DNA of 60,728 nt, counting the filler. It is 3 parts of 3 records of this genome, joined end to end, with 100 filler letters (N's around TTAATTAATTAA, not from the genome) between each part and the next. Parts side by side here need not be neighbours in the genome. Positions count along the whole stretch, not along the records: positions 13,657 to 36,301 come from DRR723986_6230; 2 more parts are not named here. One strand, 5' to 3'. The position numbers and the translations under genes were made by a program. Below are positions 17,552-34,289 of the stretch, in pieces (position 1 is the stretch's first letter; each line of letters opens with the position of its first letter). Under the pieces are notes generated by a model that saw only the letters and a list, made by a program, of their open reading frames with translations, was not told the origin of the DNA and ran no database searches.

Positions 17552-18826
17552 TCAGCGCGCAGCGAGGCCGAACAGGGATTTTGCCAGCGCAAGTTTGCCC
17601 TCGGTCGCCCGTTCACAACATGCCCGGAAGTAACCGCCGGGCGAGCTGATTTTTTCCGGATCTCGCAAGGCCTTTTCGGCCACCATCGCCAGAATTGCCG
17701 CCGCAACGTGCCTCCCCAGCCTTCCGCAGGCTTCGGTAAAGCCTTTTTCACTTAATCCGATGCCGATCCGCAGCACGTCGGTTGCGGCGATGAGATCCGG
17801 CCAGCTTTTAAGAGACAGCCCAAAATCGCCCTGGATCGACGTACATGCGCTTTCCAGCAAAGAGATCGAAACAGCATCCAGGGTTTCCGATCGGATAAAA
17901 TCCGCCTTACCGGAGCCTTTCTGCGGAGTATATCCCCTGTTGGAGCCCCCACCCCGCTCCGCTTGCTCCTTTTCAGGAGCTATTTCGGCGCCGTTGGCGA
18001 CGTTAGTCTTATTTTTGATTTCATCTGCGTGAGCAGATGTCCGGTTATTTGAACAAAAGTCTGGTGAGTTTGTATTAAATATAGGGGTGACATTGATGTC
18101 ATCTTCGCATGACGAATCCCCATTTTTATGGGCTGTTGACTGTGTATTTGAAGCCTCCTTCAGAGCTTCCATCACCAGGTCGTAAAGGTCCAGCAACGCC
18201 TGAGCTTTTGCCTGAACATCAGTCTCCGCGTCCAGAATGCCTGCCATCTGATCCAGGAAGTCTGTCAGGTCGACGTCTTTCGTTGCATCGACGATGTCGA
18301 CAATCGCCCTGGAGATCCTCATGACCGTCCGTTTGGCTTCCCTAACAGCATTGAGATGAGCCTGCCATTCGTCGGCCAGGCGCTTGATTTCGCGGTATCG
18401 CACTCTTGCCGGCGTGAAATCGAGACCATAGGCAAAGGTAATGTCGCCACTGTCGTTGCGGTGCACCCACCTGCGGCCGGTAGAACTGTCCCTGTAGGCG
18501 AGAATACGGGCCTCGACCAGCTGCTTGATGGCGCGAATGACCGTTCGTTCACTCTTGCCGACATATGAGGCAAGCTTCTCATTGGAGATGGCAACGACAG
18601 GCCTGTTGTCCCCTTTCCAGTCGTCCGGCTTTGACAGGCCAAGCAGGATGTCCAGGACATGGTAGGCAGTCGACGTGAGACCGATCGGCTGGGCCGCACG
18701 TTTCAAGGCAATAGCGACTTCGGATTTTCCAATATCGGGAATGTCGTTCGACATTGCCAGACGCTGGGACGCAAGTATCCCCGGCGTCACCTTTCGGAAG
18801 GAAGAGACGTTCGAAACAGCAGGCAT
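17552..18826 (-). CDS. repC: plasmid replication initiator RepC
   Basis: SFRKVT, PVVAISNEKLA, LAYRDSSTGRR, YGLDFTP, SPGGYFR; third gene of repABC. Confidence 0.95.
   Translation of the reverse strand: MPAVSNVSSFRKVTPGILASQRLAMSNDIPDIGKSEVAIALKRAAQPIGLTSTAYHVLDILLGLSKPDDWKGDNRPVVAISNEKLASYVGKSERTVIRAIKQLVEARILAYRDSSTGRRWVHRNDSGDITFAYGLDFTPARVRYREIKRLADEWQAHLNAVREAKRTVMRISRAIVDIVDATKDVDLTDFLDQMAGILDAETDVQAKAQALLDLYDLVMEALKEASNTQSTAHKNGDSSCEDDINVTPIFNTNSPDFCSNNRTSAHADEIKNKTNVANGAEIAPEKEQAERGGGSNRGYTPQKGSGKADFIRSETLDAVSISLLESACTSIQGDFGLSLKSWPDLIAATDVLRIGIGLSEKGFTEACGRLGRHVAAAILAMVAEKALRDPEKISSPGGYFRACCERATEGKLALAKSLFGLAAR
17995..18150. other. probable oriV (AT-rich segment inside repC)
   Basis: Locally AT-rich (ttatttttgattt, ttgtattaaatata) with a GANTC site; repABC origins lie within repC. 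Confidence 0.5.
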
Positions 18827-18930
18827 GACAACCTCCGTTCGCCGACACGAGCCAACGTGCGGCGTTATACGTTTCAGGAGGTTCAACTTCGGGAAATCGG
18901 CAGAAATCCACCGTTCACACAAGATGGATC

Positions 18931-18959
18931 TTGCGCGTGATTCGGAATTCGCCTAAAAC
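18931..18959 (+). promoter_or_regulatory. promoter of the repABC countertranscript
   Basis: TTGCGC-N17-TAAAAC with GATTC in the spacer, antisense to repABC in the repB-repC gap. Confidence 0.6.
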
Positions 18960-18964
18960 AGGAA

Positions 18965-19050
18965 AGTGTTGAGGTTCCTGTTTGGACGTTCCAAGTTGAA
19001 CCGTGATTAAAGAGACTGAACGGTTGCCGCCGTTTCGGTCTCTTTTCATT
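18965..19050 (+). ncRNA. repABC countertranscript RNA (ctRNA/RepE-like incompatibility RNA)
   Basis: Canonical position and orientation; ends in hairpin aaagagactgaacgg/ccgtttcggtctcttt followed by a U-rich tail. Confidence 0.72.
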
Positions 19051-19199
19051 TGGTCTCTATTTCTCTCGCACCGTCTCCTTCCTCACGGGGCCTGGCCGAA
19101 ATCCGGCCTCTTGCCGATATGCCCCGGGACGACACTTGAACACCTGCCCCGGATCATTGTGCGCTCGGCATACCCTTTCGAGGTATGCCGCGACCATCT

Positions 19200-20204
19200 T
19201 CAGCCCTTCGTACGTCCCGCGTCCTGCCGTTGCCGCAGATAATCGCGATAGACGTCCGGAAGGTTCTCCTCCAGCCAGTGACTGAATTCAGCTTCGGATT
19301 TCGGTATCGAGAACACGGTTGCCGCCGATGTTCTCTTCAGTTTTGCCAGTACCGTTCCGTTCGATGTGATTTCTGCTGCAGCCTGAGTTGCCGGTGCAGC
19401 CTTCTTTTGTTTGCCTCTTGCTGCCTGCGTTACCATGGACATTCTGTCCTGCGCAGCAGCCAGCCTGAAATCCTCACCGTCTATGACGGATCGAACGCGC
19501 TGTTCGGCGGCAGGGTCTTCAAACAGCTTCGCCAGTTCCATCCACGCCGGCCGGCCAACATTCCTGGCACGGCCAATCGCGCGAATGATATCGTGCGGGA
19601 TGCTGTCGGCGATCTTCCGCATATTGGAAATGACCGTTTGAACCTGGCCGAGCACCGGCTGCATCTCGCGCTGCTTGAGCCCTGCTTCGCGCAGCTGCAC
19701 AGCCCACAGGACCATCTCCGCGAAGGTCAGGTTTTCGCGGACGCCGTTTTCAAGCGACTGTTCCTTGATCAGCTCGGCATCGCTCAGCTTGCGAACGTAC
19801 GCCTTGACCTTGAACGTCTCCGGTTTGCCGGCTTCCGCCATCAATGTCTGAATGGCAAACAACCTGCGGTGTCCATAGGCCAGCTGATAGCGGTCCCGTT
19901 CCGTGGGGTGCGGGCGCACCAGAACGGGGATCCTCTGCCCCTCATCCTGGATCGAAAGCTTGAGTTCCTCGAGAGCCTCCTGCGCTTCGAGGTCTGTTTC
20001 GAAGCGATCGGAAAACGGGCTTGGGTCGATTTTCGACGGATCAAGGGCAACGATGCTGTCCTCGCGCATATGCGACAAGGCGCGCCCCATGGAATTCACG
20101 ACGGGTGCGGTTACCTTCTGGCCCGCAACCGGTTTGGGCGGCTCCTTCTTGTCGGCAGCTGCAGCCGCCGCGTCGGACATCATTTTGACGATCGACTTTT
20201 TCAT
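19200..20204 (-). CDS. repB: plasmid partitioning protein RepB (ParB family)
   Basis: GQRIPVLVRPHP, YQLAYGHRR, ENGVRENLTFAE, VGRPAW. Confidence 0.95.
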   Translation of the reverse strand: MKKSIVKMMSDAAAAAADKKEPPKPVAGQKVTAPVVNSMGRALSHMREDSIVALDPSKIDPSPFSDRFETDLEAQEALEELKLSIQDEGQRIPVLVRPHPTERDRYQLAYGHRRLFAIQTLMAEAGKPETFKVKAYVRKLSDAELIKEQSLENGVRENLTFAEMVLWAVQLREAGLKQREMQPVLGQVQTVISNMRKIADSIPHDIIRAIGRARNVGRPAWMELAKLFEDPAAEQRVRSVIDGEDFRLAAAQDRMSMVTQAARGKQKKAAPATQAAAEITSNGTVLAKLKRTSAATVFSIPKSEAEFSHWLEENLPDVYRDYLRQRQDAGRTKG

Positions 20205-20206
20205 CG

Positions 20207-21445
20207 TCAAACCTCCCTGCCCCATACACTCTTGATCAGATCGAGAATTTCGGCGTTGACGCGGTCTGCGCTTTCCAGCGCCCGCTTCAGGGTTTCCCGG
20301 CCGACTTCACCGGATTCGATCTCGTAGAGACTTTTCTTGGCAACGCCGGCAGATGCGATGGCGGTCGATTCAATCGCCTCGGCCACAAGGACGTCAGTCC
20401 CGAACAAGTCCCGCATGGTGCCGGACATGATCTTCTGCGGCCCGTCGTTGGGATTGACCCTGGTCAGCAGGAACTTGGTGAAGTCATGTTCAAAAACCGC
20501 ACCGCCTTCGGACAACGTGTGAGTCACATCCGAAATCATCTTCAGGAACTGGGAGCATGACGAAACGTCGAGCATGGCCGGGTGAACGGTGATGATCAGG
20601 CCCGTTGCCGCATAAAGGGCCGCCATCGTCGTGTAGCCGAGCGAAGGTGGCGTATCGAGGACAACGACGTCATAGTGCTCTTCAACCGACTGGATCACGG
20701 CATCGAGACGCTGGAAGAACAGGCCAAGCTCGTCGGTCGTCCTTTCGGCAAGCGCGGTCGGCGTATCGTATTCGAAATCCATCAGGCGCAGGTTGCCGCA
20801 GGCAAGGTGAATGCCCGGGAAGTAGGTCTCGCGTATGACCTCGGAGAACGGCACGCGGTAATTGTCATAGCGCAAAGCGTCGTAGGTCGTGTCGGTCCGT
20901 TCGTCATCGTCTTCGCCGGACCGAAGATCACGATCCGGCTGAATGCCGAAGGTCGTGGTCATGGAGGCCTGGGGATCCAGGTCGACACACAGCACCCGGT
21001 AGCCCTGGATAGCCAGGTAATGGGCCAGATGAACGGAGGTGGTCGTCTTAGAGCTGCCACCCTTGAAGTTCGCAGCAGCAACGACCTGCAGTTTTTCTCC
21101 CGGTCGACGATGAGGCACGAGGCGATGCGCATCGTCAGGCCTGAGTTCCGCGAGGAATGCCCTCAGTTCCCAAACCTGATCGACCGTATAGATCCGGCGG
21201 TTGTTTTCGGCGCGATGCGGCTGCGGGCCCTTGCCTTCCAGCGTCAGGGTGCGAAGCGTGCTTTCCGGCACGCCCAGCAGACGAACCAGATCCGTCGTGG
21301 AAAACGTCCGGCCGAAAACCTTGCGGGCTTCCGGCGGGTAGGTCATTTCGCGCATCGTCTGCAAACGGTCAGAAAGCTTCTGCGTGAAACTTTCGATTTT
21401 TGCGGTCGTATCGCGTCCACCGGAAAATTGTTCGGTAACGGCCAT
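20207..21445 (-). CDS. repA: plasmid partitioning ATPase RepA (ParA family)
   Basis: N-terminal HTH, NFKGGSSKTT, VDLDPQAS, DTPPSLG, HPAMLDV. Confidence 0.96.
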   Translation of the reverse strand: MAVTEQFSGGRDTTAKIESFTQKLSDRLQTMREMTYPPEARKVFGRTFSTTDLVRLLGVPESTLRTLTLEGKGPQPHRAENNRRIYTVDQVWELRAFLAELRPDDAHRLVPHRRPGEKLQVVAAANFKGGSSKTTTSVHLAHYLAIQGYRVLCVDLDPQASMTTTFGIQPDRDLRSGEDDDERTDTTYDALRYDNYRVPFSEVIRETYFPGIHLACGNLRLMDFEYDTPTALAERTTDELGLFFQRLDAVIQSVEEHYDVVVLDTPPSLGYTTMAALYAATGLIITVHPAMLDVSSCSQFLKMISDVTHTLSEGGAVFEHDFTKFLLTRVNPNDGPQKIMSGTMRDLFGTDVLVAEAIESTAIASAGVAKKSLYEIESGEVGRETLKRALESADRVNAEILDLIKSVWGREV

Positions 21446-21936
21446 TAATGCCCTCTGACGGTTTCGTGCCCGATATGAGCGGTAACTCCGTCATGGATGC
21501 AGGATTCCAGCAGATGGTGCAAGGAAATTTAAGTTAACGAAACCCTAACCCGGCCTGGTTGAACCGGCATTCCAGATGCCTCTACGAAACTTTCCGACCC
21601 GACGGGTGTGCCAATCTTTGCCAGTTCCAGAGCATCATTCTAGCCGATACTATTTTTTCCTTATTTATTTCAATTACTTAATTTGCCCTTGAATGCTACC
21701 GCGAGGTCTCCGGCGATGGACCGGCCACATTTTCAGAACACTGGCTGAAGTTAAACCCACGCAAAATCTTCCTTGAAACTTTTCCGGGTGTTTTGCCGGT
21801 TAAAAGCAGATTTTCTGATGTTTCAACAGAATCGGTACGGTCAGAACAGGCGATCAGAGCTCGCTCAGGACTGGCGCAAGGTTCACCACAGAACTGGCAA
21901 TCCGGCAAAATGAGAGCAGCTCACCAGAGGCAACTC

Positions 21937-24189
21937 CTACTTTTTCAACTCTCCATAGAGCCCAAGCAGAGCGCCAGGAAGCCTGGAAAGGTCCGCGAGC
22001 TTTCTGACATTCTTGCCGCCAAAAATCCTGCCGGAATAATCGTTGCGGTTGTCGCCGAGCGAGAAACAGAAAACATCGATGCCGGCCATCGCCAATTCGC
22101 GCAAGGCGAAACGGGCGTCCTCCAGGAGATAATCCGGATCATCGACGTCAATATCGGACGGCTCCCCGTCAGTCACCACCAGCAATACCTTTCGATATGC
22201 CGTCCTTTCGGCAAGCTCACGCCCACCGTGACGCATAACCGGGCCGAGCCGGGTCGAGAAAGCACTTTCCAGACCGGCCAAGCGTTCATACACGCCTTGG
22301 TCGACCGATTGGCCGAAGTCCTTGATCCGCGCATATCGGACTGTCTCCCGAGTGTCCGAGCAAAACCCTGCAAGTGCGCAATTGTCGCCGGTCGTCTCCA
22401 TCGCCCCGGCCATTATCGCAGCAGACAGGCGTTCAAGATCGAGAACGCTGGCGCCCCCTTCGCCTGCCGGCTCGCCGGTGGAGTGTGACTGGTCGATCAG
22501 CAACAGGATGTCCAGGTCCCGTCCCTTGCAACTCTTCCGGCCGAAGATCCTCGGATCGGGGATCTCCTGGTTGCGGCGACTTGCCTGGGCATCGATGCAT
22601 GCATCCAGATCGAGAAAGTCACCGGTTTCCAGCCGGCGCTCCCGCTGGAACGCATTTACATTGGCACCGGAGATCAGAGAGATGAGAGAACTCTGTATCC
22701 TGGTTTCTTGCGTGAGGCTCCGCAACAGACCGGTTGCCGCCTTTCGCGGCGCCTCAGTGACATGAACAGTGCACCAGTCCGGGCGCATGCGGCGGCTGAC
22801 ATGATCGTATTCGGGATAGGTGATCAGCCGGGTTACCGCGTCCTCATCTCGAAGCCGTAGCTTTTCCGCTGCCGCGGCCTCTTCCTCGCGCTTTTCGTCC
22901 TCTTCGGGCTCCTGCCGGTCGGCCTCGTCGCGTTCTTGTTGCTCCAGGCGCACACCTTCCGTTTCAACTGCAACATCCATCTCGATCAGGTCTGGTTCCT
23001 CGTCGAAGGTCCAGATACCGAGGTTGTCGTCCCTGTAGGCCGGCTGCACCACATAAGTGCGGGCGTCGAACTGCAGCCGCATCTGCCCCAGATCGTTGGC
23101 AAGCAGTCCGCCAATTCTCCGGCAGAAGGTCTGGTCGTTGGGGGTCGCGGCAAAGGCTTCCTCGAACAGGCGTTTTCCTTTCTCCACCCAACCGTTGGTA
23201 TCGCTGTATTCCGGATCTATCAGCGTGCGCGACAACCGTGCCATCAAGGTTGTCGCCAGGTCTGCGGAGCGTGCATCCATGGTGTGGAAGCTGCTCCAGA
23301 GAGACCTCAGTCCCGGCATCTTTTGCAGAGCGAGCCGTTCGACCCGCGCGTCTTCAAGCAAGGAGATAACGGCGACTTGCAAGGGTTTCAGGGACTTTCG
23401 CTCAAACACCTGCCGGGTGAAGGCAATGTGAGCGCCGACATGGGCAAGAGCCGCATGATAAAGCTTCAGGCTGTCCGCGCGGTCGAAACCCGGAAACCCC
23501 GACGGCAGACGAATGCCATCCCGCCCGAACCCGGCCCTGCGAAGCATTTGCTCCGGAGCTGTGGCCGGGGTCTCGACAATGGGCGGAAGCTGACCCCACA
23601 AGGCGGCATGAAACGTCTTCAACCGAAGCTCTTCATCGTCAAAACGCAAGACTGACGACTGCCGGTCAAGAAAGTGCCGCGCTTCCGGGTCTTCACCAGC
23701 GAGAAACAACCGCGCCTTTTCGCGGTTCGTCAGTCTGAGTGCCAACCCCATGCCGACGAATGTCCTGTAGCCGGACAAGCCGATTTCTGCCAGGGATCTG
23801 TCAGACGTCTCAAGCAGTGCTTCAACGGCTTCCGGCAAGTCGCGTCCGGTCCGTTCCAAAAGCGCGCACCACTCCGAAAAAGCAGGAAATGTCTTCAAGT
23901 GCTGCGCTGCGCGAGCCGCTGTATTCGGCACCCTTGCCGATGCGCGCCGGCCGGAACGAATGGCAATCCAGGAAACCAGGCGTCCGAGATCGGCTGCGGC
24001 TTCTTCCGAAACCGCCTCTGCAACCATCGGGCCACAAATACGATAGGCTTGCGTTACGGTTTCGCCGTAACCGGCCTGGGCAATCCGGGACAGGGCTTTA
24101 GTCCAGACGGCAGACATTTGCCGTTCATATTCGCGCGTCTCAACGGTGTTGGTCTTTGCCGTGGCAGCCTCGGTCATCGTCGCCGCCAT
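21937..24189 (-). CDS. cbbO: CbbO-type von Willebrand factor A adaptor (CbbO/NorD family), 750 aa
   Basis: AHVGAH, LEDARVE, YRDDN, YPEYD..RPDW, MIDAS DQSHS, STRLG, TDGEPSDIDV; length and motifs fit CbbO better than NorD. Confidence 0.85.
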   Translation of the reverse strand: MAATMTEAATAKTNTVETREYERQMSAVWTKALSRIAQAGYGETVTQAYRICGPMVAEAVSEEAAADLGRLVSWIAIRSGRRASARVPNTAARAAQHLKTFPAFSEWCALLERTGRDLPEAVEALLETSDRSLAEIGLSGYRTFVGMGLALRLTNREKARLFLAGEDPEARHFLDRQSSVLRFDDEELRLKTFHAALWGQLPPIVETPATAPEQMLRRAGFGRDGIRLPSGFPGFDRADSLKLYHAALAHVGAHIAFTRQVFERKSLKPLQVAVISLLEDARVERLALQKMPGLRSLWSSFHTMDARSADLATTLMARLSRTLIDPEYSDTNGWVEKGKRLFEEAFAATPNDQTFCRRIGGLLANDLGQMRLQFDARTYVVQPAYRDDNLGIWTFDEEPDLIEMDVAVETEGVRLEQQERDEADRQEPEEDEKREEEAAAAEKLRLRDEDAVTRLITYPEYDHVSRRMRPDWCTVHVTEAPRKAATGLLRSLTQETRIQSSLISLISGANVNAFQRERRLETGDFLDLDACIDAQASRRNQEIPDPRIFGRKSCKGRDLDILLLIDQSHSTGEPAGEGGASVLDLERLSAAIMAGAMETTGDNCALAGFCSDTRETVRYARIKDFGQSVDQGVYERLAGLESAFSTRLGPVMRHGGRELAERTAYRKVLLVVTDGEPSDIDVDDPDYLLEDARFALRELAMAGIDVFCFSLGDNRNDYSGRIFGGKNVRKLADLSRLPGALLGLYGELKK

Positions 24190-24192
24190 GTC

Positions 24193-25020
24193 TTACAGGC
24201 AGGCAGAAACAGCGGAGGACATCGCAGCGCGGATCTCCGGCTCATCCACGAGCGGCAGCACGATGGCAATCTGACAGGCCTCTTCCAGCGGCACGCCTTG
24301 CGCTGTCAGCTGACCGGCCGCAATCAACATGCGCGTCGATGCACCTTCGCGCAGTCCGTGACCCTTGAGGTTCCGGGATCTTTCCGCAACCCGGACAAGA
24401 ACCCTTGCTGTTTCAGGCTCGACACCGGCTTCGCGCGCCACGATTTCCGCTTCGATTGCCGCATCAGGATAGTCGAAGGAAATCGCGCAGAACCGCTGCC
24501 GGGTGGATTCCTTCAGATCTTTAAGCACACTCTGATAGCCGGGGTTGTAGGAGATCACGAGCTGGAAGTCCGGATGCGCTTGGACCAGTTCATTCTTCTT
24601 TTCCAGCGGCAAATGGCGGCGATGGTCGGTCAGGGAATGGATGACGACCGTCGTGTCCTGCCGCGCTTCCACCACTTCGTCGAGATAACAGATCGCACCG
24701 TTCCGGACGGCCGCCGTCAGCGGGCCGTCGTGCCAGACGGTACCGTCGGCATCCAGCAGAAACCGTCCGACCAGATCCGACGCCGTCATGTCCTCATGAC
24801 AGGACACCGTGACGAGAGGACGCTTCAGCCGCCAGGCCATGTGCTCGACAAACCGCGTTTTGCCGCATCCCGTCGGCCCCTTCAGAAGGATCGGCAACCG
24901 TGCGGCATAGGCGGCTTCATAATGGCCGACCTCCTGTGCAAAGGGGCGATAAAAGGGTTCGCTGACAATGCGATAGGCGTCAATCGGGTCCTCAATCGGA
25001 CCAGCTATCGGTGCATTCAT
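24193..25020 (-). CDS. cbbQ: CbbQ-type MoxR AAA+ ATPase (CbbQ/NirQ/NorQ family)
   Basis: [77 protein letters not shown]. Confidence 0.92.
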
Positions 25021-25209
25021 TCCTGGACTTCCTGTTGAAGACGCTGCAGCGGGGGAAATCGCTGCAGCGCCAGGAGGATGCGGCGCTGCGAACCGCATCG
25101 CTCGGGAGGATCGCTGGATCAGCGCGTGCCGCCAGGTTGCTGGCCTTCGGCAAGAGCTGATCGATTTCGAACCGGGCGAGAGACTTCCCGCCCGGACTGG
25201 ACCTGAGCC

Positions 25210-26247
25210 CTAGCGGTGGGTGCTTGCGCCGTTCGGGATGCCTTCCATCGGACATTCCTCGGTGCCGACCGTCGTGCGGGTCATGGCCTCGACCATCTCC
25301 CGCGTTCCTTCCGGATCGTTCACCCAGTTGGCGTAGAAGTTATAGGGGCAGGCTGCCTGGCCCTTGTCGCCGTCGCCGGAGTTGATCGTGCCGGTGTAGC
25401 CGCGGTGCAGCAGTTTGAAGAGGTGGTTCTGCGACTGCATGTTCTTGCGGGCATCGCGGATCCCCGACACCGACATCTGGGCATATTGAATGCCGTTTTC
25501 TTCGGTGCCGCATTCTCCCAGCGTCCGGCCGTCGAAACCGATCAGGGCCGAATGGCCGAAATAGGAATAGACGCCATCGAAGCCGGCGGCATTTGCAACC
25601 GCCACATAGCAGTTGTTCGCCCAAGCCATGGATTTGGAAATCTGGATCTGCTGCTCCTTGGCCGGATACATGTAGCCCTGGCAGCGGATGATGAGTTCCG
25701 CCCCGCGCATGGCGCAGTCACGCCAGATTTCCGGATAGTTGCCGTCGTCACAGATGATCAGGCTGATCTTCATCCCCTTCGGGCCTTCCGAGACGTAGGT
25801 GCAATCGCCCGGATACCAGCCTTCGATCGGCACCCAGGGCATGATCTTGCGGTATTTCTGGACGATCTCGCCCTTGTTGTTCATCAGGATGAGCGTGTTG
25901 TAAGGCGCCTTGTTTGGGTGATCCTCGTGTCGCTCGCCTGTCAGGGAGAACACGCCCCAGACGTTCGCCTTCTTGCAGGCTTCGGCGAAGATGGCCGTTT
26001 CCTCTCCAGGCACCTGGGAAGCGGTTTCGTACATCTCCTTGGGGTCATACATGATCCCGTGGGTGGAATATTCCGGGAAGATCACCAGGTCCATGCCCGG
26101 AAGGCCGACCTTCATTCCCGCGATCATGTCCGCGATGTTGCGGGCATTGGCCAGCACTTCCTCGCGGGTATGCAGACGCGGCATCTTGTAGTTGACCACC
26201 GCCACGCCGACGGTGTCGTTGCTGCTGGAAATATCACCGTGATACAT
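25210..26247 (-). CDS. amiE: aliphatic amidase (nitrilase superfamily)
   Basis: [25 protein letters not shown]; catalytic E (FPEYS), K (YRKI) and C (ICDDGNYPE); RBS GAAGGAGG. Confidence 0.97.
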
Positions 26248-26280
26248 CAATTCCTCCTTCTAGGAACGGGTTGCCGCGCC

Positions 26281-26976
26281 TCAGACCACGAGGTGTTCGT
26301 GGACAAGGTCGTCGGACAGTTGGGCAATGCCGGAAGTGACCGCGACGGTGCCGCGGTCGAGGATCGCGAACCGGTTCGAGGCCCGGCGTGCGAAAGTGAG
26401 GTTCTGCTCCACCAGAACGATGGTGAGGCCCCTGGTTCGGTTCAGGTCGATCAGGACATCCTCGATCTGCTCGACGATGTTGGGCTGGATGCCTTCCGTC
26501 GGCTCATCGAGCAGAAGCACCTTGGGCTGGGAAAGAAGCGCCCGACCGATTGCAAGCTGCTGCTGCTGACCTCCGGAAAGGTTGCCGCCCCGCCTGTTCA
26601 GGAACTCCTTCAGGATCGGAAACAGCTCCAGCACCCAGTCGGCGATCTCACCCTGGCCCGATTGGGCGGCAAAGGTGCCGATCATCAAGTTCTCGCGCAC
26701 GGTGAAGGCCGGCAGGATGCCGCGGCCTTGCGGGACATAGCCGATGCCAGCGAGCGCTCTTGCGTGCGTCGGCAGGCTGTTCAATTCCATTCCGTCCAGC
26801 TTGACCGAACCGGACGTGCGGCTCATCAACCCGAGGACACTGCGAAGAAGCGTCGTCTTGCCCACGCCGTTGCGGCCGAGAACGGAGAAAAAATCACCCT
26901 CGTCAATGTCCATGGAAACGGACTGGAGCGCACGGCTTCGGCCGTAGAAACCATCGAGACCGTTCAGCTCAAGCAT
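26281..26976 (-). CDS. amide/urea ABC transporter ATP-binding subunit (UrtE-like)
   Basis: GRNGVGKT, YVPQGR, LSGGQQQQLAI, LDEPTEGIQPNIV. Confidence 0.92.
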   Translation of the reverse strand: MLELNGLDGFYGRSRALQSVSMDIDEGDFFSVLGRNGVGKTTLLRSVLGLMSRTSGSVKLDGMELNSLPTHARALAGIGYVPQGRGILPAFTVRENLMIGTFAAQSGQGEIADWVLELFPILKEFLNRRGGNLSGGQQQQLAIGRALLSQPKVLLLDEPTEGIQPNIVEQIEDVLIDLNRTRGLTIVLVEQNLTFARRASNRFAILDRGTVAVTSGIAQLSDDLVHEHLVV

Positions 26977-27730
26977 GGCCGGCCTCCTTCGTTCCAAGAT
27001 ATGCTTCCTTCACCCGCGGGTCGCTGGAGACTTCCTCCAGCGAACCTTCGGCAAGCAGCTTGCCCTGGTGCATGACTGAAATGGTTTCAGCAATGTCGCG
27101 CACGAATCCCATGTCGTGCTCGACGACAATCAGCGTGTGCTCGCCCCGCAGCCTGTTGAACAGCTCGGCCGTCTTGCCGGTTTCCTGCGCGGTCATGCCG
27201 GCTGTCGGCTCGTCCATCAGGATGAGTGTCGGGTTCTGGGCCAGGATCAGCGCGATCTCCAGCCATTGCGTCTGACCGTGAGACAGATGTCCGGCAGCAA
27301 GATCGAGATCGTCCTGAAGGCCGACCAGAACCGCAAGACGTTCGATGTCCTCGTCGTCATGACTTGCACCGAAACGCACGAGGTTGGCCAGAACGCCGGT
27401 GTTTCCTGATTGACCGATATTCAGGTTTTCCCGAACGGACAGTTCGCGGAAGACACTCGGCACCTGGAACTTGCGCCCGATACCGACACGGGCGATCTGA
27501 TATTCCTTCAGGGTATGGATCGCCTCGCCCTTGAAACGGATCTCGCCGGAGGTCACACGGGTCTTGCCGCAGATCAGGTCGAGTGCCGTGGTCTTGCCAG
27601 CACCGTTCGGTCCGATCAGGCACCGCAGTTCGCCGCTGTTCACATCCAACGACAGTCCTGAGATCGCCTGGAAACCGCCAAAGGACACACTGACGTCCCG
27701 AAGGCTGAGGTGGTCGGTTGCCGTCTTCAT
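26969..27730 (-). CDS. amide/urea ABC transporter ATP-binding subunit (UrtD-like)
   Basis: GPNGAGKT, GIGRKFQ, LSHGQTQWLEI, MDEPTAGM, VVEHDM. Confidence 0.92.
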   Translation of the reverse strand: MKTATDHLSLRDVSVSFGGFQAISGLSLDVNSGELRCLIGPNGAGKTTALDLICGKTRVTSGEIRFKGEAIHTLKEYQIARVGIGRKFQVPSVFRELSVRENLNIGQSGNTGVLANLVRFGASHDDEDIERLAVLVGLQDDLDLAAGHLSHGQTQWLEIALILAQNPTLILMDEPTAGMTAQETGKTAELFNRLRGEHTLIVVEHDMGFVRDIAETISVMHQGKLLAEGSLEEVSSDPRVKEAYLGTKEAGHA

Positions 27731-28845
27731 GACGCCGCCTCCGTGGTTTTCATGACATTGCTCGCGGATTTCCTGGCGCTGCCGGCGAAAAAGGGCAGCC
27801 GGTCGACGGCCATCGAGACGGCACCTGCAATGCCTTTCGGCAGAAACAGGACAGCGAGTACGAACAGCCCCCCCATGATCAGCATCCAGCTTTCCAGGAA
27901 GACTTCGGATTCCGACAGGGCCCCCTGGACGCCGGTCACGATCAGGGCTCCGATGGCAGCCCCCAGAAGGCTCTGCCGGCCGCCCACGGCGACCCAGATC
28001 ACCACAGAAAGACTGAGCGGCACGCTAAGGAATGTCGGCGAGGCGAATTCCATCACGATCGTGTAGAGCATGCCCGCCAGACCGGCGATGCCGGCCGACA
28101 GCGAGAAGACGAAGATCTGATAGAGCGCGACGTCGTAGCCGAAGAAACGCACCCGGTTTTCCTGATCGCGGATCGCTTGCAGGATCATGCCGGTCTTGCT
28201 GCGGGTAACCGCGAGCGACAGAAGCAGCACGGCACACAGGCACAGCGCAACCAGGTAATAGGTTGTCGCGGAATAGGCGTCGAAGAAGAAACCGGCCACT
28301 TCGAACTGGGCGAGATCCGTGATGCCGTTGAAGCCGCCGGTGTAGCGCTGCTGATCGATGATCAGGAGATTGACCACCACCAGAACGGCCAGAGTGATGA
28401 TCGACGCATAGACACCGGTGATGCGCCCACGAAACATGAACCAGCCGAGCAGTGCAGCAAAGGCGGCAGGGATCAGGAGCCCCGCCAGAATGGCGAAGGT
28501 CATGGAGTGAAACGGCGCCCAGAACCAGGGCAGTTCGGTGACATTGTTCCAGACCATGAAGTCCGGAAGCCCTTCGCTGCCGGTGTGCACCGGCACGGTG
28601 CGAAGCTTGAGGCCCATGGCCATGGCATAGGACCCCAGGCCAAAGGTGGCTGCCTGGCCGAGATTGAGAATTCCGGCGTAGCCCCAGGAGAGGCTGAGCG
28701 AGACTGCCAGGATGGCAAAGACCAGGTAGCGGGAATATTTGTTCAGGAGAAACGCATCGTCCAGCACGGACGGCACGAGCAAGATGGCTGCACAAAACGC
28801 CAGATAGAGCACCAGCCGAGCTGTTGATTTTCCAGTCAGGTTCAT
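27727..28845 (-). CDS. amide/urea ABC transporter permease (UrtC-like)
   Basis: WGYAGILNLGQ, LPDFMVWN, AIRDQENRVRFFGY, IWVAVGGR. Confidence 0.92.
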   Translation of the reverse strand: MNLTGKSTARLVLYLAFCAAILLVPSVLDDAFLLNKYSRYLVFAILAVSLSLSWGYAGILNLGQAATFGLGSYAMAMGLKLRTVPVHTGSEGLPDFMVWNNVTELPWFWAPFHSMTFAILAGLLIPAAFAALLGWFMFRGRITGVYASIITLAVLVVVNLLIIDQQRYTGGFNGITDLAQFEVAGFFFDAYSATTYYLVALCLCAVLLLSLAVTRSKTGMILQAIRDQENRVRFFGYDVALYQIFVFSLSAGIAGLAGMLYTIVMEFASPTFLSVPLSLSVVIWVAVGGRQSLLGAAIGALIVTGVQGALSESEVFLESWMLIMGGLFVLAVLFLPKGIAGAVSMAVDRLPFFAGSARKSASNVMKTTEAAS

Positions 28846-28873
28846 TGAATTGCGATCCTTTTTCCGGCCGTGA

Positions 28874-29743
28874 TCACGAGCGCACACGGGTCGAGAACAG
28901 GCCTTCGGGCCGAAAGCGGATGAGGATGACGATCGCCAGCAGGACCAGCGCCTTGGCCAGGGTGTCGTTGCTGTGGAAGGCCAGGAAACCCGAAAGTTCA
29001 CCCAGGATCCCGGAGCTTGCGACAGTGCCGAGCAGGCTCTGGGCACCACCAAGGACAACCACCATGAAGGCGTCGACGACGTAGGTCGTCCCCATTTCCG
29101 GAGAGACGCTCTTCAGCGGCGACACGAGCGCACCGGCGAGACCGGCGATGCCGGCGCCATAGGCGAAGGTCGATCGATAGATGCGGGCGGAATTTATGCC
29201 GAAGCTGGAGGCGATCTCCCGGTTCTGGGTAATCGCACGCAGTTTCAGCCCGAAGCTGGTGCGACGGTAGATAACCCAGGTGAGCCCGAAGAGGACAAGC
29301 GCAAGACCGAGGATGAACAGCCGGTAGGCGGACTCGCTTGCACCGAACAGGGACACGCTGCCACTGAGGAACGCCGGGATCTCGACATAACGCAGCTCGC
29401 CGCCGGCAATCAGCCGGATCGCCTGCTGCGCCATCACGCCAATGCCCCAGGTCGCCAGGATAGTGTCGAGCGGCCGGTCGTAGAGATGGCGGATGACCAG
29501 GGCTTCCACGGCCCAACCGAACACCGCAAGAATGAAAAAGATCGGGATCAGGCTTTCCAGCAATCCCATGCCAAGCTGGGACTGCAGAAACCAGGCGCAA
29601 TAGGCGCCCAGCATGACGAATTCGCCATGCGCGAGATTGATGACCCCGGTCACGCCGTAAATGACGGCGAGGCCAAGGGCGACCAGCATCAGGATCGAAG
29701 CGATACTGAGACCGGTCAGGAGTTGGGAGACGACAAGTTCCAT
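28874..29743 (-). CDS. amide/urea ABC transporter permease (short UrtB-like)
   Basis: GVINLAHGEFVMLGAY, RPLDTILATWG, DAFMVVVLGG. Confidence 0.92.
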   Translation of the reverse strand: MELVVSQLLTGLSIASILMLVALGLAVIYGVTGVINLAHGEFVMLGAYCAWFLQSQLGMGLLESLIPIFFILAVFGWAVEALVIRHLYDRPLDTILATWGIGVMAQQAIRLIAGGELRYVEIPAFLSGSVSLFGASESAYRLFILGLALVLFGLTWVIYRRTSFGLKLRAITQNREIASSFGINSARIYRSTFAYGAGIAGLAGALVSPLKSVSPEMGTTYVVDAFMVVVLGGAQSLLGTVASSGILGELSGFLAFHSNDTLAKALVLLAIVILIRFRPEGLFSTRVRS

Positions 29744-29823
29744 CTGCAAGCCTTCAAGGTCTGGAAAACATCAGGTCACGGAAAAGCCGGGCGGCGTGAC
29801 GACACGCCGCCCGTTTGCGCGTG

Positions 29824-31071
29824 TCAGCTGCTCTTCAGACCGTCAGCGGTGCAGACTTGACCGTCGTAGGCCTTGTAGGGAATGGGCTCGAGCCAGTCGG
29901 CGGACTGTTGCAGGATCTCGAACTGGCCATCCGACTTGCACTGGCCGATCTTCGGTCTCAGCCAGGTATGAAGGTTCTCGCCCTCGATCTTGACCAGTCC
30001 CTGCGGCGCGTTGAACTGCTCGCCCTTGACGGCCTCGCGGATGGTGGTGGGATCGATATCGTCCGGCGACAGTTTCTCGACGGCCTGCTTGAACAGATGC
30101 ACCTGGAAATAGGACGGCTCGGAGACGAAATGCGTGACCTTGTCGCCGCCCCAGCGGGACTTGTAGGCCTCGACGAATTTCTGGTTTTCCGGTGAATCCC
30201 AGACCATGAAATATGGTGCGGAGGTGAAATGCCCCGCGGCTGCCGCACCGCCCATCGCCGCCACTTCGTTTTCCGAGGTGGTCAGGCTGGCCATCGGCAT
30301 CTTTTCCGGGTCGAGACCGGCGGCATGATACTGCCGGTGCAGGGCGACAACGGAATCGCCGACCACCGTCGAAAAGATCACATCCGGCTTTTCCGCCTTC
30401 AGCTTGTTGATGACGGATGAGAATTCCGAATGACCGAGCGGCACATATTCCTCATGAACCACTTCGGCGCCAAGTTCGGCCAGCAACTTCTTGCAGTAGT
30501 TGTTCTCTTCCTTCGGATAGATGTAATTCGACCCGATCAGGTACCAGCGCTTGCCGAAATTCTTCACCAGCCAGGGCACGAACTCGTCCTGCTGCTGATT
30601 GGGGACAGCACCTGTGTAAATGACATTCTTCGAGCACTCGCGCCCCTCGTAGAGGGTAGGATACCAATAGAGATTGTCCCGCTTTTCGAACACGGGCAGC
30701 ACGGCCTTCCGGCTGGCCGAGGTATAGGAGCCGAAGACCGAAACGCATTTGTCCTGGAGGACAAGCTTGCGCGCCTTTTCCGCGAAAGTCGCCGGATCAG
30801 AAGCCGGGTCCTCAACCACCGGAACGATCTCCATGCCGTTGACACCGCCGGCGGCGTTGATTTCCTCGATCGCCATGATCGTCGCCTTGTTGAGCGACTC
30901 TTCGATAATCGCAGTCGTCCCGGTCAGGGAGAACAGAACCCCCACCTTGATCTGGCCGCCGGCGGCGCGCGCCAGCCCGCTGTTCTTGCTCCAGATATGC
31001 GGGAAGGTGCCGAGACCGGCTGCCCCGAAAGCGGCCGACCCGAGAAGAAAATTGCGCCTGTTGGTTTTCAC
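29824..31071 (-). CDS. amide/urea ABC substrate-binding protein (UrtA/FmdD/AmiC-like), Tat-exported
   Basis: GTG start with RBS GGAG; twin-arginine NRRNFL; IKVGVLFSLTG, YTSASRKAVLP, YPTLYEG, PNQQ. Confidence 0.92.
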   Translation of the reverse strand: MKTNRRNFLLGSAAFGAAGLGTFPHIWSKNSGLARAAGGQIKVGVLFSLTGTTAIIEESLNKATIMAIEEINAAGGVNGMEIVPVVEDPASDPATFAEKARKLVLQDKCVSVFGSYTSASRKAVLPVFEKRDNLYWYPTLYEGRECSKNVIYTGAVPNQQQDEFVPWLVKNFGKRWYLIGSNYIYPKEENNYCKKLLAELGAEVVHEEYVPLGHSEFSSVINKLKAEKPDVIFSTVVGDSVVALHRQYHAAGLDPEKMPMASLTTSENEVAAMGGAAAAGHFTSAPYFMVWDSPENQKFVEAYKSRWGGDKVTHFVSEPSYFQVHLFKQAVEKLSPDDIDPTTIREAVKGEQFNAPQGLVKIEGENLHTWLRPKIGQCKSDGQFEILQQSADWLEPIPYKAYDGQVCTADGLKSS

Positions 31072-31084
31072 GTTGCTGCTCCAT

Positions 31085-31174
31085 AAACAAAAAAAGCCCC
31101 GTCCGCCCTGCCTTGCGGCAGCTCGTTCGGGGCATCGTCGCCTCTGATTTTTGTGAACGCGGCTATGGTGCCGC
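31085..31174 (-). promoter_or_regulatory. ANTAR attenuator (dual hairpin + terminator), proximal to the SBP gene
   Basis: P1 gcggc-ACCATA-gccgc (31159-31174). P2 ggc-GACGAT-gcc (31131-31142) overlaps terminator gccccg...cggggc-TTTTTTT. Confidence 0.72.
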
Positions 31175-31199
31175 TGAGGGAAATGTCTGAATTTCAGAC

Positions 31200-31275
31200 A
31201 ACAAAAAACCCCACGTTCCGCCAAGACGAAAACCGTGGGGCTCTTTTACCCGGATGTACGTGGCGCTGTTGCCAC
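31200..31275 (-). promoter_or_regulatory. ANTAR attenuator (dual hairpin + terminator), distal
   Basis: P1 gtggc-AACAGC-gccac (31260-31275). P2 gggt-AAAAGA-gccc (31238-31251) overlaps terminator ccccacg...cgtgggg-TTTTTT. Confidence 0.78.
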
Positions 31276-31288
31276 AAATAACTCTGAA

Positions 31289-31317
31289 AGATTAGCTAAG
31301 AAGTTCGTGCGAGTCAA
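31289..31317 (-). promoter_or_regulatory. sigma70 promoter embedded in the amiR 3' end
   Basis: TTGACT-N17-TAATCT; the -10 box includes the amiR stop codon and lies ~14 nt before ANTAR P1. Confidence 0.65.
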
Positions 31318-31945
31318 TTATCGCATTTGCAACTGCGCCAATAGTTACACGCCGTTCCATCGCCTGTCGGCGCAAATAGTTGTAAGCTTCCTCTTCGCTT
31401 ACATTCTTGACGCGAACCAACAGAGACTTTGCACGCTCAACAAGGCGCATTGTTCTGAGATTTTCATCAAGTTTATCGATCCGGTTTCTTAGTCGACGTT
31501 CGTAAAGAAAGTGCTCGCGCGCCAGAGCGACACAAGTCTGGACCGCGCGCTGGACGACCGGATAGTGCAGCACGCCATGGGCGGCGCAATTATGGATCAG
31601 CTTGAGATCCAGATTGCTGACACCGCGATCCACCAACACCAGACCGGCTTCCGGCTCTCCCGGCAACCAGGGGATACGTTTGGGCATGTCCTCGACCAGC
31701 GTGCAGAACACAAGATCGCAATCGACAGGCAACTGCGGCGGGATCGGCCAGATATGGCGCACCTCGCAACGCAGGCGCTGCAACTCCCGGATCAGGCGTT
31801 CGCCATCCGCATCGGGTTCGACGATAACCGCGATCCTGAGGTTCTGATGCGGAGTTGTCGCGGTGGCGTTCTTGCGCATGGCAGCCGCAGCCGACGTTCG
31901 TTGCGAAAGCGGACGCTTGGTCTTGGCCGCCGCGTTTGTGTCCAT
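31292..31945 (-). CDS. amiR: ANTAR-domain antiterminator AmiR (pseudo-receiver + ANTAR; start uncertain)
   Basis: ELQRLRCEVRHIWP; LVERAKSLL...SEEEAYNYLRRQAMERRVTI; follows amiC. Confidence 0.9.
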   Translation of the reverse strand: MDTNAAAKTKRPLSQRTSAAAAMRKNATATTPHQNLRIAVIVEPDADGERLIRELQRLRCEVRHIWPIPPQLPVDCDLVFCTLVEDMPKRIPWLPGEPEAGLVLVDRGVSNLDLKLIHNCAAHGVLHYPVVQRAVQTCVALAREHFLYERRLRNRIDKLDENLRTMRLVERAKSLLVRVKNVSEEEAYNYLRRQAMERRVTIGAVANAIIDSHELLS

Positions 31946-32001
31946 TTCCAGTGTCTCCCCGGTTGTCTGCTTGTTTGTCCAGGTTCTTCGGGAGGTTTGT
32001 G

Positions 32002-33144
32002 TCAGCTGTATTCGAGGCATCGGCCGTACCCAATCAAGTAAGGATCCGCCTTCACGCTGGAGGGCGATTCAAAAACGATATCGAACTGGCCGCTGCGGTT
32101 CGCGCGGCCGATGCGGGTCCACAGGTCGGCATGGCCCCAAACGGGGTTGATGGAAACTTCGCCCTGCGGGGCATCGAATTCCGATCCCATGACCGACTGG
32201 CGGATCATCGAGGTGTCCATCGAGTTGGTCTCGGCAAGGGTCTTGGCGAAGACATTCACCTGGAAATAGGACGCCTCCAGACACATGTTGGTCGGCTCGT
32301 CCTCTCCGTAGCGCTTCTTGTAACGGTCGATGAAGGTCGCATTGCGGTCATTGCCGACGCCCTGGAAATAGGAAGCGGCGGTCAGATGGCCGTCGCCGAC
32401 ATCATATCCCATCGCCCGGATCTCGGCCTCGGTTGTCGTCAGGCTGGCGATCGGCATCACCCTCGGGTCGATGCCGAGATCGGCATAGGCCTGGTAGAGA
32501 TATGTGGTCGTGTTTCCGACCACCGTGGAGAAGATCACGTCCGGCTGCAGCTGCCGGATTTCGCGCATGATCGGTACGAAGGAGTTCCTGTCCGCTCCCA
32601 GCCGGACATAACTCTCGCCGACGACACTGCCGCCGTTGTTGCGGATCAGCTCCCGCATGATGCGATTGGATTCGCGCGGATAGATGTAGTCCGACCCCAC
32701 GAAATAGAACCGCGTTCCATAGAGCTCCATCAGGATCCGGCACAGCTGGACGCTGTTCTGGTTGGGCGTTGCTCCCGTGTAGATCACGTTGGAGGAAAAC
32801 TCGAAGCCCTCGTAAAGCGTCGGATACCACAAAAGGCCGTTCAGTCTTTCAACCACAGGCAGAACGGCCTTGCGGCTGGACGAGGTATAACAGCCGAATA
32901 TCGTGCTGCAGCCGTCCTCGACCATAAGCTTCTTTGCAAGAAGCCCGTAGTTGCGCGAGTCCGAACCCGGGTCATAGATAATCGGCTCGATGGGCCGTCC
33001 GTTGATCCCGCCGCTATCATTGATTTCATCGATCGCCGTCAACGTCCCGCGCAACTGGGTTTCCTCGATCACCGACATGTAGCCGGATTGCGAGAACAGC
33101 ACACCGACGCGCCACGGTTCGGAAGTTTTGCATGAACTGGTCAA
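32002..33144 (-). CDS. amiC: amide-sensing negative regulator AmiC (cytoplasmic PBP fold)
   Basis: No signal peptide; VGVLFSQSG, GCYTSSSRKAVLPVVER, YEGFEFS, PNQNS, SDYIYPRESN, ASLTTTEAE. Confidence 0.9.
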   Translation of the reverse strand: MTSSCKTSEPWRVGVLFSQSGYMSVIEETQLRGTLTAIDEINDSGGINGRPIEPIIYDPGSDSRNYGLLAKKLMVEDGCSTIFGCYTSSSRKAVLPVVERLNGLLWYPTLYEGFEFSSNVIYTGATPNQNSVQLCRILMELYGTRFYFVGSDYIYPRESNRIMRELIRNNGGSVVGESYVRLGADRNSFVPIMREIRQLQPDVIFSTVVGNTTTYLYQAYADLGIDPRVMPIASLTTTEAEIRAMGYDVGDGHLTAASYFQGVGNDRNATFIDRYKKRYGEDEPTNMCLEASYFQVNVFAKTLAETNSMDTSMIRQSVMGSEFDAPQGEVSINPVWGHADLWTRIGRANRSGQFDIVFESPSSVKADPYLIGYGRCLEYS

Positions 33145-33209: not shown

Positions 33210-34232
33210 TCAGGCACTACCCGCAAGTATTTCCTTCAGCTTCCCGTCCAGAAACGCCACATCAACCGGGCTGGTGCCCGGCCCACCTGCAAAATGTCCC
33301 CAAATGGATTCAATCGGAACCAACGTCGCGTTCGGCATGTTTGCGACTTCGATTTCGCTGTCTTCCGGCGGGAAGTATAGATCCGTTCGGCCGGGCATCA
33401 CATATGCCTTCGATTGTATTGCCCCCAGCGCCTTCTTGTAATCGCCATGGTAGATGTCGTTGGCGCTGATATCGCCGTTCTGCCAGGTCCAGAGCATGGC
33501 CAGCAGGTTGTTGGCGTCCTTGGGCAGGAAAAATCCTTCCCAGAACGCAACCAGGAAATCTTCCAGCGAGGAATATCCAAGCGTCTTCAGGTCCAGTTCT
33601 TCCCGGTAGAATGATTGCGAGAAACCCCAACCGGCATAGACACGCGCCATCGCCCGAAGCCCTCGTTCCGGCTTTTTCTCGTACCAGCCTTCCAGAAAGG
33701 CGGCATCGGCTGTCAGGGCCGCTTTCACCCCTTCCAGGAACACGAAGTTGTGCCGGGAGCATTTGGCGGACCCGCAAAACGGCACGATCCTCTCGACCAT
33801 GTCGGGATACATCGCGCCCCAGTGGAAGGTCTGCAGAGCCCCCATGGACCAGCCCGTGACCATCTTGATACGCTCGACACCGAACTTCTGTGTCATGAGC
33901 TGGTGCTGTGCGCGGACGTTGTCATAGGCGGTCACTTTCGGAAACCGCGCCGCGTTGTAGGGCTCGGGCGTATTGGACGGCGAAGATGACAAGCCGTTGC
34001 CGAACATGTTCGGAATCACGATGAAATACTCATCGGGATCCAGCGCCATGCCCTTGCCGACCAGCCATTCGTTGTCGACGTGCTGACCGGAATACCAGGT
34101 CGGGTAAACGATGACGTTGTCCTTCGCAGCGTTGAGTTTGCCGAAGGTCTTGTAGGCGAGCTTGCACTCGCGAAGCGTTGCGCCACTCTGAAAGGTGAAG
34201 TCGCCCAGTTCGTAAATTTCGTAGTCTGCCAT
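33210..34232 (-). CDS. homoserine-transacetylase-fold alpha/beta hydrolase (MekB/CgHle-like acetyl hydrolase)
   Basis: PTWYSG, LDP..YFIV.PNMFGNGLSSSPSN, nucleophile GWSMG, acid DLYF, IWGH. Confidence 0.8.
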   Translation of the reverse strand: MADYEIYELGDFTFQSGATLRECKLAYKTFGKLNAAKDNVIVYPTWYSGQHVDNEWLVGKGMALDPDEYFIVIPNMFGNGLSSSPSNTPEPYNAARFPKVTAYDNVRAQHQLMTQKFGVERIKMVTGWSMGALQTFHWGAMYPDMVERIVPFCGSAKCSRHNFVFLEGVKAALTADAAFLEGWYEKKPERGLRAMARVYAGWGFSQSFYREELDLKTLGYSSLEDFLVAFWEGFFLPKDANNLLAMLWTWQNGDISANDIYHGDYKKALGAIQSKAYVMPGRTDLYFPPEDSEIEVANMPNATLVPIESIWGHFAGGPGTSPVDVAFLDGKLKEILAGSA

Positions 34233-34289
34233 GGAAGGCTATCCTCTGGTTTTTGGTATTGTCCGGCGGCCTGAGCCGCCGGAAATGGG

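Follow-up and report, generated by a model that had tools for sequence, protein, structure and literature searches.

A CbbQO-type gene pair conserved beside the aliphatic amidase gene amiE is probably a repair or activation system for a second enzyme besides Rubisco

The amiE-Q-O locus

The window analysed here, a stretch of 60,728 bases along which all coordinates are counted, carries on its minus strand three open reading frames (ORFs) in a row and in the same direction: amiE (25210-26250), encoding an aliphatic amidase, Q (24193-25098), encoding a CbbQ-type MoxR AAA+ ATPase, and O (21937-24189), encoding a CbbO-like adaptor. An initial annotation had placed these genes at the end of an amide operon, with repABC on the far side, and had proposed that the ATPase and its partner, a Rubisco-activase-type pair, act on the amidase. 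The layout was as described, every part of the proposal that could be checked held, and the comparisons below support it: amiE-linked Q/O is probably a repair or activation system for a second enzyme besides Rubisco, an activity on AmiE that we infer from comparative genomics.

The 346-aa amiE product, the proposed client (25210..26250, minus strand), matches NF009802, the NCBIfam equivalog for aliphatic amidase, at 716 bits (cut-off 427) and the solved amidase 2plq at 668 bits, and contains the Pfam domain CN_hydrolase. Residues C167, E60, K135 and E143 are invariant across 43 sequences, the cysteine lying in the context ...SLIICDDG..., and we take them to have the catalytic roles assigned in the Pseudomonas aeruginosa and Geobacillus structures. 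The last two codons, at 25213..25218 on the minus strand (...ACC CAC CGC TAG), encode His345-Arg346, so that the protein ends ...STHR, with a C-terminal H-K/R tag.

The open frame of Q extends to 25098, but its start is most likely M27 (25020), because the preceding AGGAAGTCCAGGA, the 275-aa cluster representative P0004 and the annotated coding sequence of a 98.6% identical plasmid all fit this position; the protein would then comprise 275 aa (24193..25020, minus strand) and the spacer between amiE and Q, by direct reading, 189 nt (25021..25209, minus strand). A consensus terminator and promoter scan of 21500-26600 found no terminator-like site on the minus strand of this spacer, and fewer sites in the scanned region than in shuffles. 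O, of 750 aa (21937..24189, minus strand), was assigned from its VWA domain, its MIDAS (metal ion-dependent adhesion site), its position in the tree and its predicted structure. The whole region, 21937-26250, is 97-99% identical to plasmids of Roseibium aggregatum, R. algicola and Labrenzia.

RNA libraries of four studies hold contigs covering the stretch, which may be DNA, and in two metatranscriptomes single contigs span amiE-Q-O, as contigs that cannot show a single transcript or its levels. In library X3 the amiE stop codon is the exact meeting point of two contigs (25217-25246), a weak hint only, with a mean depth of 554 for the amiE-side contig and 187 for the other, values which as properties of contigs cannot show levels. 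The arrangement is not contradicted by these contigs, to which we give no further weight.

The gene row to which amiE-Q-O belongs is an AmiC/AmiR-controlled amide-uptake operon, all on the minus strand. Next to amiE lies an uptake system for amide or urea, an ABC transporter of the Urt type (UrtE, UrtD, UrtC, UrtB and a substrate-binding protein, 26281..31224), assigned with NCBIfam; UrtB, UrtC, UrtD and UrtE exceed their equivalog cut-offs, and the substrate-binding protein scores 426 against the UrtA equivalog, below the cut-off of 493. These genes are followed by an AmiR-like antiterminator (31292-32020; ANTAR and AmiR_N), an AmiC-like amide sensor or binding protein (32002-33144; Peripla_BP_5), an alpha/beta hydrolase (33210-34232; Pfam) and a cytosine/purine-type permease (34290-35606; Pfam). 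On the other side the operon is bounded by the plasmid replication and partition module repA, repB and repC (17552..21445, minus strand), recognised by TIGR03453 (RepA, 515 bits), RepB and RP-C. The hydrolase and permease pair recurs in ami clusters, here at 33210-35606, in Bradyrhizobium (L010, 9096-11508), where it lies between amiE and Q, and in Paraburkholderia (L089, 7375-9801), where it lies beside amiE.

Family placement of Q and O

Q contains the Pfam domains PF07728 (AAA_5, 121 bits) and PF08406 (CbbQ_C, 101 bits), and its translation has an intact Walker A (GPTGCGKT) and Walker B (LDEV, within CYLDEV) as well as the CbbQ-like strings quoted in the initial annotation. Among solved structures it scores higher against CbbQ (5c3c, 396 bits; 6l1q, 372) than against NorQ (9qh4, 316; another, 300), and its identity is 60-69% to Rubisco-linked CbbQ versus 54-59% to norB-linked NorQ. 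The best 120 relatives of Q are 70-99% identical, carry generic source names ('CbbQ/NirQ/NorQ/GvpN family', 'NorQ') and include no CbbQ or NorQ outgroup; a search of protein representatives returned mainly fragments and midasin-like giants, without gene context and so unsuited to a labelled tree. We classed Q genes by the genes found within 7 kb (amiE 63, form I RbcL 9, form II RbcL 6, norB 14, none of these 13) and built a quick maximum-likelihood tree of 105 rows, for which support is given as SH-aLRT values (Shimodaira-Hasegawa-like approximate likelihood ratio test). The 14 norB-linked NorQ form a separate clade (support 94), and on the other side amiE-linked and Rubisco-linked Q are intermixed, with Rubisco-linked Q nested beside betaproteobacterial amiE-linked Q (support 98). 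A clade of unlabelled context also appears (support 96), and a single alignment column distinguishes amiE-type from Rubisco-type Q.

The sole Pfam match in O is the VWA domain (residues 560-717), and the domain as a whole, residues about 555-750, is encoded at 21940..22527 on the minus strand. The intact MIDAS attributed to this 750-aa partner is indeed present: D566, S568 and S570 (DQSHS; DxSxS codons at 22480-22494), T646 and D674, in columns kept in 48-49 of 50 amiE-linked O. Mutation of the MIDAS is reported to abolish client activation both in CbbO (PMC4660213) and in NorD (PMC9976466). The O tree (LG+G4) comprises 86 of 95 rows, near-duplicates having been removed, and places one NorD on a very long branch; it splits amiE-linked O together with CbbO from NorD together with unlabelled sequences (support 93). 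Within the former group, Rubisco-linked CbbO form one clade (support 100) outside which the window's O falls, the window's O belongs to a 39-row clade of alpha-type amiE-linked O (support 100), and the betaproteobacterial amiE-linked O, proteins of 560-690 aa without the approximately 200 N-terminal residues, make up a third clade (support 100).

Residues of the middle domain separate amiE-linked O and CbbO from NorD. H250, H254, E279, D280, R282, Y385, D387, D388 and W393 show no variation among 50 amiE-linked O, and in almost every one of 15 O that are Rubisco-linked or of the CbbO clade they are the majority residues, which they are not in 11 NorD. A YRDD..W motif common to CbbO lies in this domain (residues about 200-400, window 23000-23600). 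An AlphaFold2 model of O (mean predicted local distance difference test score 86) comprises a helical N-domain and the middle domain, then an acidic linker that is disordered (403-450), and finally a hairpin (454-479) before the VWA domain. The best Foldseek matches are the VWA domains of NorD in NorQD complexes of 2026 (9qh6 and 9qhd; TM-score 0.75-0.78 on the target); the top matches all cover the VWA part, and no CbbO chain was returned in either search of solved structures with O.

Because trees, middle-domain residues and scores against solved structures agree, the pair is, judged by its sequences, a sister lineage of CbbQO and not NorQD, as its original description as CbbQ/CbbO-like rather than NorQ/NorD-like had implied. 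It shares with the CbbQO Rubisco activase (Acidithiobacillus ferrooxidans Q1O1/Q2O2 and Halothiobacillus CsoCbbQ/O; PMC4660213) the two-gene module, CbbQ 5c3c as best solved match of Q, an O of the 745-780 aa length class with a perfect MIDAS and CbbO-specific middle-domain motifs, and a position directly downstream of a presumed client that ends H-K/R. Unlike CbbQO, which is encoded next to cbbL/cbbS or cbbM, the pair has amiE as its neighbour and thus a nitrilase-superfamily amidase as presumed client, the amiE-linked O clades lie beside rather than inside the Rubisco-linked CbbO clade, and the betaproteobacterial forms have the shorter N-terminus noted above. With NorQ/NorD of Paracoccus denitrificans (PMC9976466, PMC13036017) the pair has in common a MoxR AAA+ protein with a VWA partner, a hairpin preceding the VWA domain, as the NorD 'finger' does, and a VWA model that superposes on that of NorD. 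Nevertheless, NorQ falls in its separate clade, NorD does not have the middle-domain motifs, O lies outside the NorD clade and the window holds no norCB. RavA-ViaA and other MoxR-VWA pairs likewise have a MoxR ATPase and, after it, a VWA adaptor directed at an enzyme of metabolism or respiration (PMC4660213, PMC9976466), but RavA-ViaA and Q/O, compared by Pfam only, belong to different MoxR subfamilies.

Other Q/O groups were seen in the course of this comparison. 'Orphan' cbbR-cbbQ-cbbO genes, read as LysR-Q-O and lacking Rubisco, amiE and norB within 7 kb (L106, G137:C1, 7801-11849; L117, G318:C1), belong within the form II CbbO/CbbQ clade. Good support also defines another Q/O clade, which is sister to NorQD and has an O of about 700 aa and no norB nearby (L114, L116, L119, L120, L121, L123 and L139-L142); in L119 (3955-11730) its Q/O follow two NIR_SIR (sulfite/nitrite reductase-like) proteins and a GltD/DsrL-like Fe-S flavoprotein. 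This clade may represent another client class.

Linkage to amiE and the C-terminal tail of AmiE

A linkage unique to this plasmid had been named beforehand as a result that would speak against an amidase client, and the linkage proved widespread. We surveyed, on contigs of one genome per species, the flanks (±8 kb) of the closest 80 of at least 585 AmiE relatives, and Q was present at 62 of these 80 amiE loci, in alpha- and betaproteobacteria. The sample spans Mesorhizobium, Bradyrhizobium, Ancylobacter, Rhodobacterales, Rhodospirillales and one Pelagibacter metagenome-assembled genome (MAG), and includes Hydrogenophaga, Delftia, Comamonas, Variovorax, Achromobacter and others. Three arrangements occur: amiE directly followed by Q-O, amiE-permease-hydrolase-Q-O in Bradyrhizobium, and O-Q convergent on amiE in Ancylobacter and others. 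That the linkage persists through such rearrangement argues for a functional connection. Furthermore, a tblastn search with O of 72,556 plasmids matched 34 records, 11 of them from Roseibium or Labrenzia; among the rest, the 16 with coverage of O of at least 69% all carry amiE no more than about 5 kb away (16/16), and the other seven, which cover at most 65% of O, are Cereibacter, Nitrobacter or NorD-annotated records, the one inspected reading cbbL-cbbS-Q-O.

An even sample of the phylum, 401 genomes in all, includes 24 with a true AmiE; Q/O lie 12-214 bp after amiE in seven of these, and a Clp-type (AmiB) ATPase lies directly after amiE in another seven of the 24. The latter are relatives, 41-46% identical, of an ATPase found beside amiE on a Rhodococcus plasmid, which has the domains AAA_2 and ClpB_D2-small and follows or faces amiE. 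Q has neither of these domains, and BLASTP aligns it with the Rhodococcus protein over 22 residues only, around the P-loop. On a Paraburkholderia plasmid the gene order is amiE-Q-O-amiC-amiR, and in P. aeruginosa it is amiE-amiB-amiC-amiR, where AmiB is called 'poorly described' and is hypothesised to be a chaperone (review PMC12591593). Paraburkholderia Q-O thus occupies the place of amiB in P. aeruginosa, right after amiE and before amiC/amiR as in amiEBCRS (PMC12591593), which bears out the suggestion that CbbQO fills the amiB position. The AmiB type, of Rhodococcus and the seven sampled genomes, belongs to a different AAA+ clade and comes without a VWA partner; that one slot can be filled by either of two unrelated AAA+ remodellers looks like non-orthologous displacement.

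The H-K/R ending of AmiE associates perfectly with Q/O, and this is our strongest result. According to Tsai et al. (2015; PMC4660213), HK/R at the extreme C-terminus is found on the Rubisco large subunits associated with cbbQ/cbbO and not on other form I/II large subunits. The account of this motif in the same paper gives the penultimate His as the critical residue, reports that removing one or two residues or adding one Ala abolishes both activation and ATPase stimulation, and reports that a C-terminal 11-mer stimulates the ATPase (PMC4660213). We extended AmiE matches to the stop codon before reading their tails, and all 72 AmiE with Q within 8 kb, a set that includes the window and a near-identical plasmid, end H[KR] (69 HR, 3 HK). 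None of eight AmiB-linked AmiE does so (for example ...KEKSAD, ...KEKTA and ...EKTAEA). Among AmiE without Q in the flank, five of 29 end H[KR] and 18 of the remainder end NY. The genomes of all five exceptions hold Q elsewhere, at the flank edge (L080), about 9-13 kb away on the same contig (L047, L061) or on other contigs (L028, L040). In the last of these genomes (L158, G403:C17, 9356-12745) a Q of 65% identity is followed by a 769-aa ORF for which neither a VWA or other Pfam match nor a tblastn match to O was found, and which may be either a diverged partner or an ORF arising spuriously from high GC.

The even sample gave the same picture, with H[KR] ends in 7/7 Q/O-linked, 0/7 AmiB-linked and 0/10 AmiE with neither. 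As controls, 14 of 16 RbcL encoded adjoining CbbQ end HK or HR, the other two ending HA, and no NorB of 14 ends H[KR]. Within the window only one of 102 ORFs of at least 150 aa has such an end, and AmiE alone has it among the 13 products encoded in and beside the operon. Residues just upstream of the tag vary freely. AmiB-linked AmiE (L088, L097-L100, L103, L104, L107) have a tail style of their own, a (G)KEK-like stretch with small last residues (A/G/D), and Bradyrhizobium AmiE without an ATPase end NY. With distinct tails in each class, the AmiE tail co-varies with the type of neighbouring AAA+ protein.

Several single loci deserve mention. G137 was at first a candidate for a Q/O-linked amiE and was rejected, as its Q/O belong to a true cbbLS-cbbQO cluster abutting an amiE-amiB operon. 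There (L107, G137:C10:130000-149000) amiC-amiR-SBP-urtBCDE-amiE-amiB (SBP, substrate-binding protein; amiB of the Clp type) adjoins cbbR-cbbL-cbbQ-cbbO; AmiE ends ...EETA, of the AmiB type, and RbcL ends HR, so that within 8 kb both AAA+ systems retain a tagged client of their own. In a Rhizobium etli plasmid (L149, 9206-11155) an acetyl-CoA synthetase gene (acs) directly follows O, which fits an acetamide-to-acetyl-CoA route in one operon. In an Acetobacteraceae MAG (L160, G404:C1, 12450-16468) a nitrilase-like CN-hydrolase, about 25% identical to AmiE and ending ...HYTA, lies directly upstream of Q-O, and an HR-ended amiE lies about 11 kb off.

Possible function of Q/O and competing explanations

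On the evidence of linkage and tail, we consider a direct action of Q/O on AmiE through its C-terminal tail moderately probable; that this action is the repair of an inhibited AmiE is a more tentative proposal. By analogy with CbbQO and NorQD, Q and O would make up a remodelling machine of the CbbQO (MoxR-VWA) type, in which a Q hexamer carries a single O. The MIDAS of O would bind a surface carboxylate and so dock O on the AmiE hexamer, and the complex would grip the C-terminal His-Arg tag of AmiE, which would fit a specific pocket. The last approximately 70 residues of AmiE presumably form an arm wrapping the neighbouring subunit, as in solved structures. ATP hydrolysis by Q could then pull on this long arm and briefly loosen the active site, clearing a dead-end state and restoring AmiE activity. 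Such a state could be an amide or urea analogue tightly bound to, or covalently trapped on, the catalytic Cys. Slow inhibition by urea or hydroxyurea is reported, but our literature search did not bring it up. The physical binding, the stoichiometry and the preference for reactivation over assembly are all argued from analogy here. Prediction of a complex of AmiE with O residues 200-750 gave a score of 0.00 in both runs, a 'no answer' that counts neither way. It is conceivable, and we hold this tentatively, that CbbQO is one instance of a tail-tag-directed enzyme-repair machine, a sister lineage of which was recruited to AmiE with the same His-Lys/Arg tag and MIDAS contact.

A number of points weigh against this proposal. 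The binding of Q/O to AmiE is putative, and in the literature searched no dead-end AmiE state needing ATP-driven repair is documented. Wilson et al. in 1995 are said to have found that deletion of amiB in P. aeruginosa left inducible amidase expression unaffected. The two CbbQ-adjacent RbcL ending HA mean that the motif is not absolute for Rubisco either. Because relatives share traits, the association of tail and linkage rests on few independent events: on a tree of the AmiE alignment without its last six residues the H[KR] trait changes six times, and of five well-supported independent contrasts with Q/O linkage about three are concordant, none is discordant and about two are uninformative, which is not significant in a sign test (p about 0.25). 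In the even sample, both Q/O and AmiB are missing within 8 kb of amiE in 10 of the 24 genomes, and nine of these ten hold no Q homologue at E <= 1e-30 anywhere. AmiE in general does not need Q/O. With so many AmiE lacking both systems, an accessory repair function fits better than an obligatory maturation function, and the situation can be likened to that of the many Rubiscos without CbbQO.

[quoted passage not shown] The same role, 'assembly/activation', has been suggested in print (PMC13209695, 2026). Nevertheless, AmiE of 83-86% identity works in genomes without Q or AmiB, so that its assembly has no inherent need of a chaperone; Q/O belong to the CbbQO branch, for which the established task is repair of a mature enzyme; and a tag at the extreme C-terminus is present only after chain completion. 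AmiE, unlike NOR, is not known to have an Fe_B-like or other metal cofactor to insert.

It is improbable that amiE is a mere neighbour and that the client is another protein, whether a Rubisco or NOR encoded elsewhere, the alpha/beta hydrolase, the transporter or AmiC/AmiR. As the initial annotation had stated for the surroundings of the pair, no rbcL, norCB or nirS is present: tblastn with RbcL, NorB, NorC, NirS and an AmiB-type ATPase gave no match in the entire 60.7-kb window. The genome-wide search was made in the nearest genome, G001, as a proxy for the window's strain; it has 53% of the window's words in common and the same amiE-Q-O at 99%. G001 encodes its own norC-norB-norQ-norD beside nirS, with a NorQ 54% identical to Q, and the tails of NorB do not end H[KR]. 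Its one RuBisCO_large match (239 bits) is an OiaX-like Rubisco-like protein that adjoins a sugar-kinase-type gene and ends ...ARK, and is, from its sequence, not a carboxylase. A Rubisco elsewhere in the window's strain is thus excluded by proxy only, which counts against an amidase client, as do the recurrence of the hydrolase and permease with ami clusters and the true cbbLS-QO that in G137 lies by chance 2.5 kb from an amiE-amiB operon. However, amiE alone stays with Q/O in all arrangements, with many direct loci having no hydrolase or permease, and it is the tail of AmiE, unique among the operon products, that tracks the presence of Q/O. A negative or regulatory role, with Q/O disassembling or turning over the AmiE hexamer when amides run out or tuning AmiC/AmiR, seems to us likewise improbable: C-terminal tags are classic handles of AAA+ unfoldases, AmiB-linked AmiE carry their own distinct tail of small residues after a KEK-like stretch, and P. 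aeruginosa amiB lies between amiE and the regulators amiC and amiR (PMC12591593), but no protease partner is encoded nearby, the known outcomes of CbbQO and NorQD are activation, and inducing a target and its destroyer from one operon would be wasteful. We return to action on AmiE through its tail as the reading to be preferred.

The initial annotation had known of no characterised example of such a system. That holds as regards characterisation, since in open-access and bioRxiv literature we found no amidase-CbbQ/O example beyond one sentence in PMC13209695, but the gene pair had already been mentioned there: the ami operon of a Pseudomonas veronii plasmid has the same two extra genes, for which that sentence suggests 'assembly/activation of aliphatic amidase', the passage offering no survey, tree, tail analysis or experiment (PMC13209695, 2026). 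The word 'amidase' has 0 occurrences in the CbbQO paper (PMC4660213) and in the NorQD paper (PMC9976466). The amiE-linked pair is a genuine variant of the CbbQO system, conserved and practically unstudied, and the idea is not wholly unpublished.

Rubisco activases are the textbook case of an enzyme needing a dedicated, ATP-driven repair machine. If a sister machine serves a simple hydrolase bearing the same tag, ATP-driven repair would be a more general strategy; CbbQO would not be restricted to Rubisco, and amidases, like Rubisco, would fall in vivo into dead-end inhibited states that are cleared with ATP. The Clp-type AmiB, unexplained since 1995, would then be a non-homologous solution to the same problem, reading a different AmiE tail, which would be the first concrete proposal for what AmiB does in the classic amidase operon of Pseudomonas. 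AmiE would also provide a small, soluble and easily assayed second client with which to dissect recognition through the H-K/R tail and the MIDAS. Moreover, aliphatic amidases are industrial biocatalysts that lose activity in use, and co-expression of the partner genes could matter for their stability.

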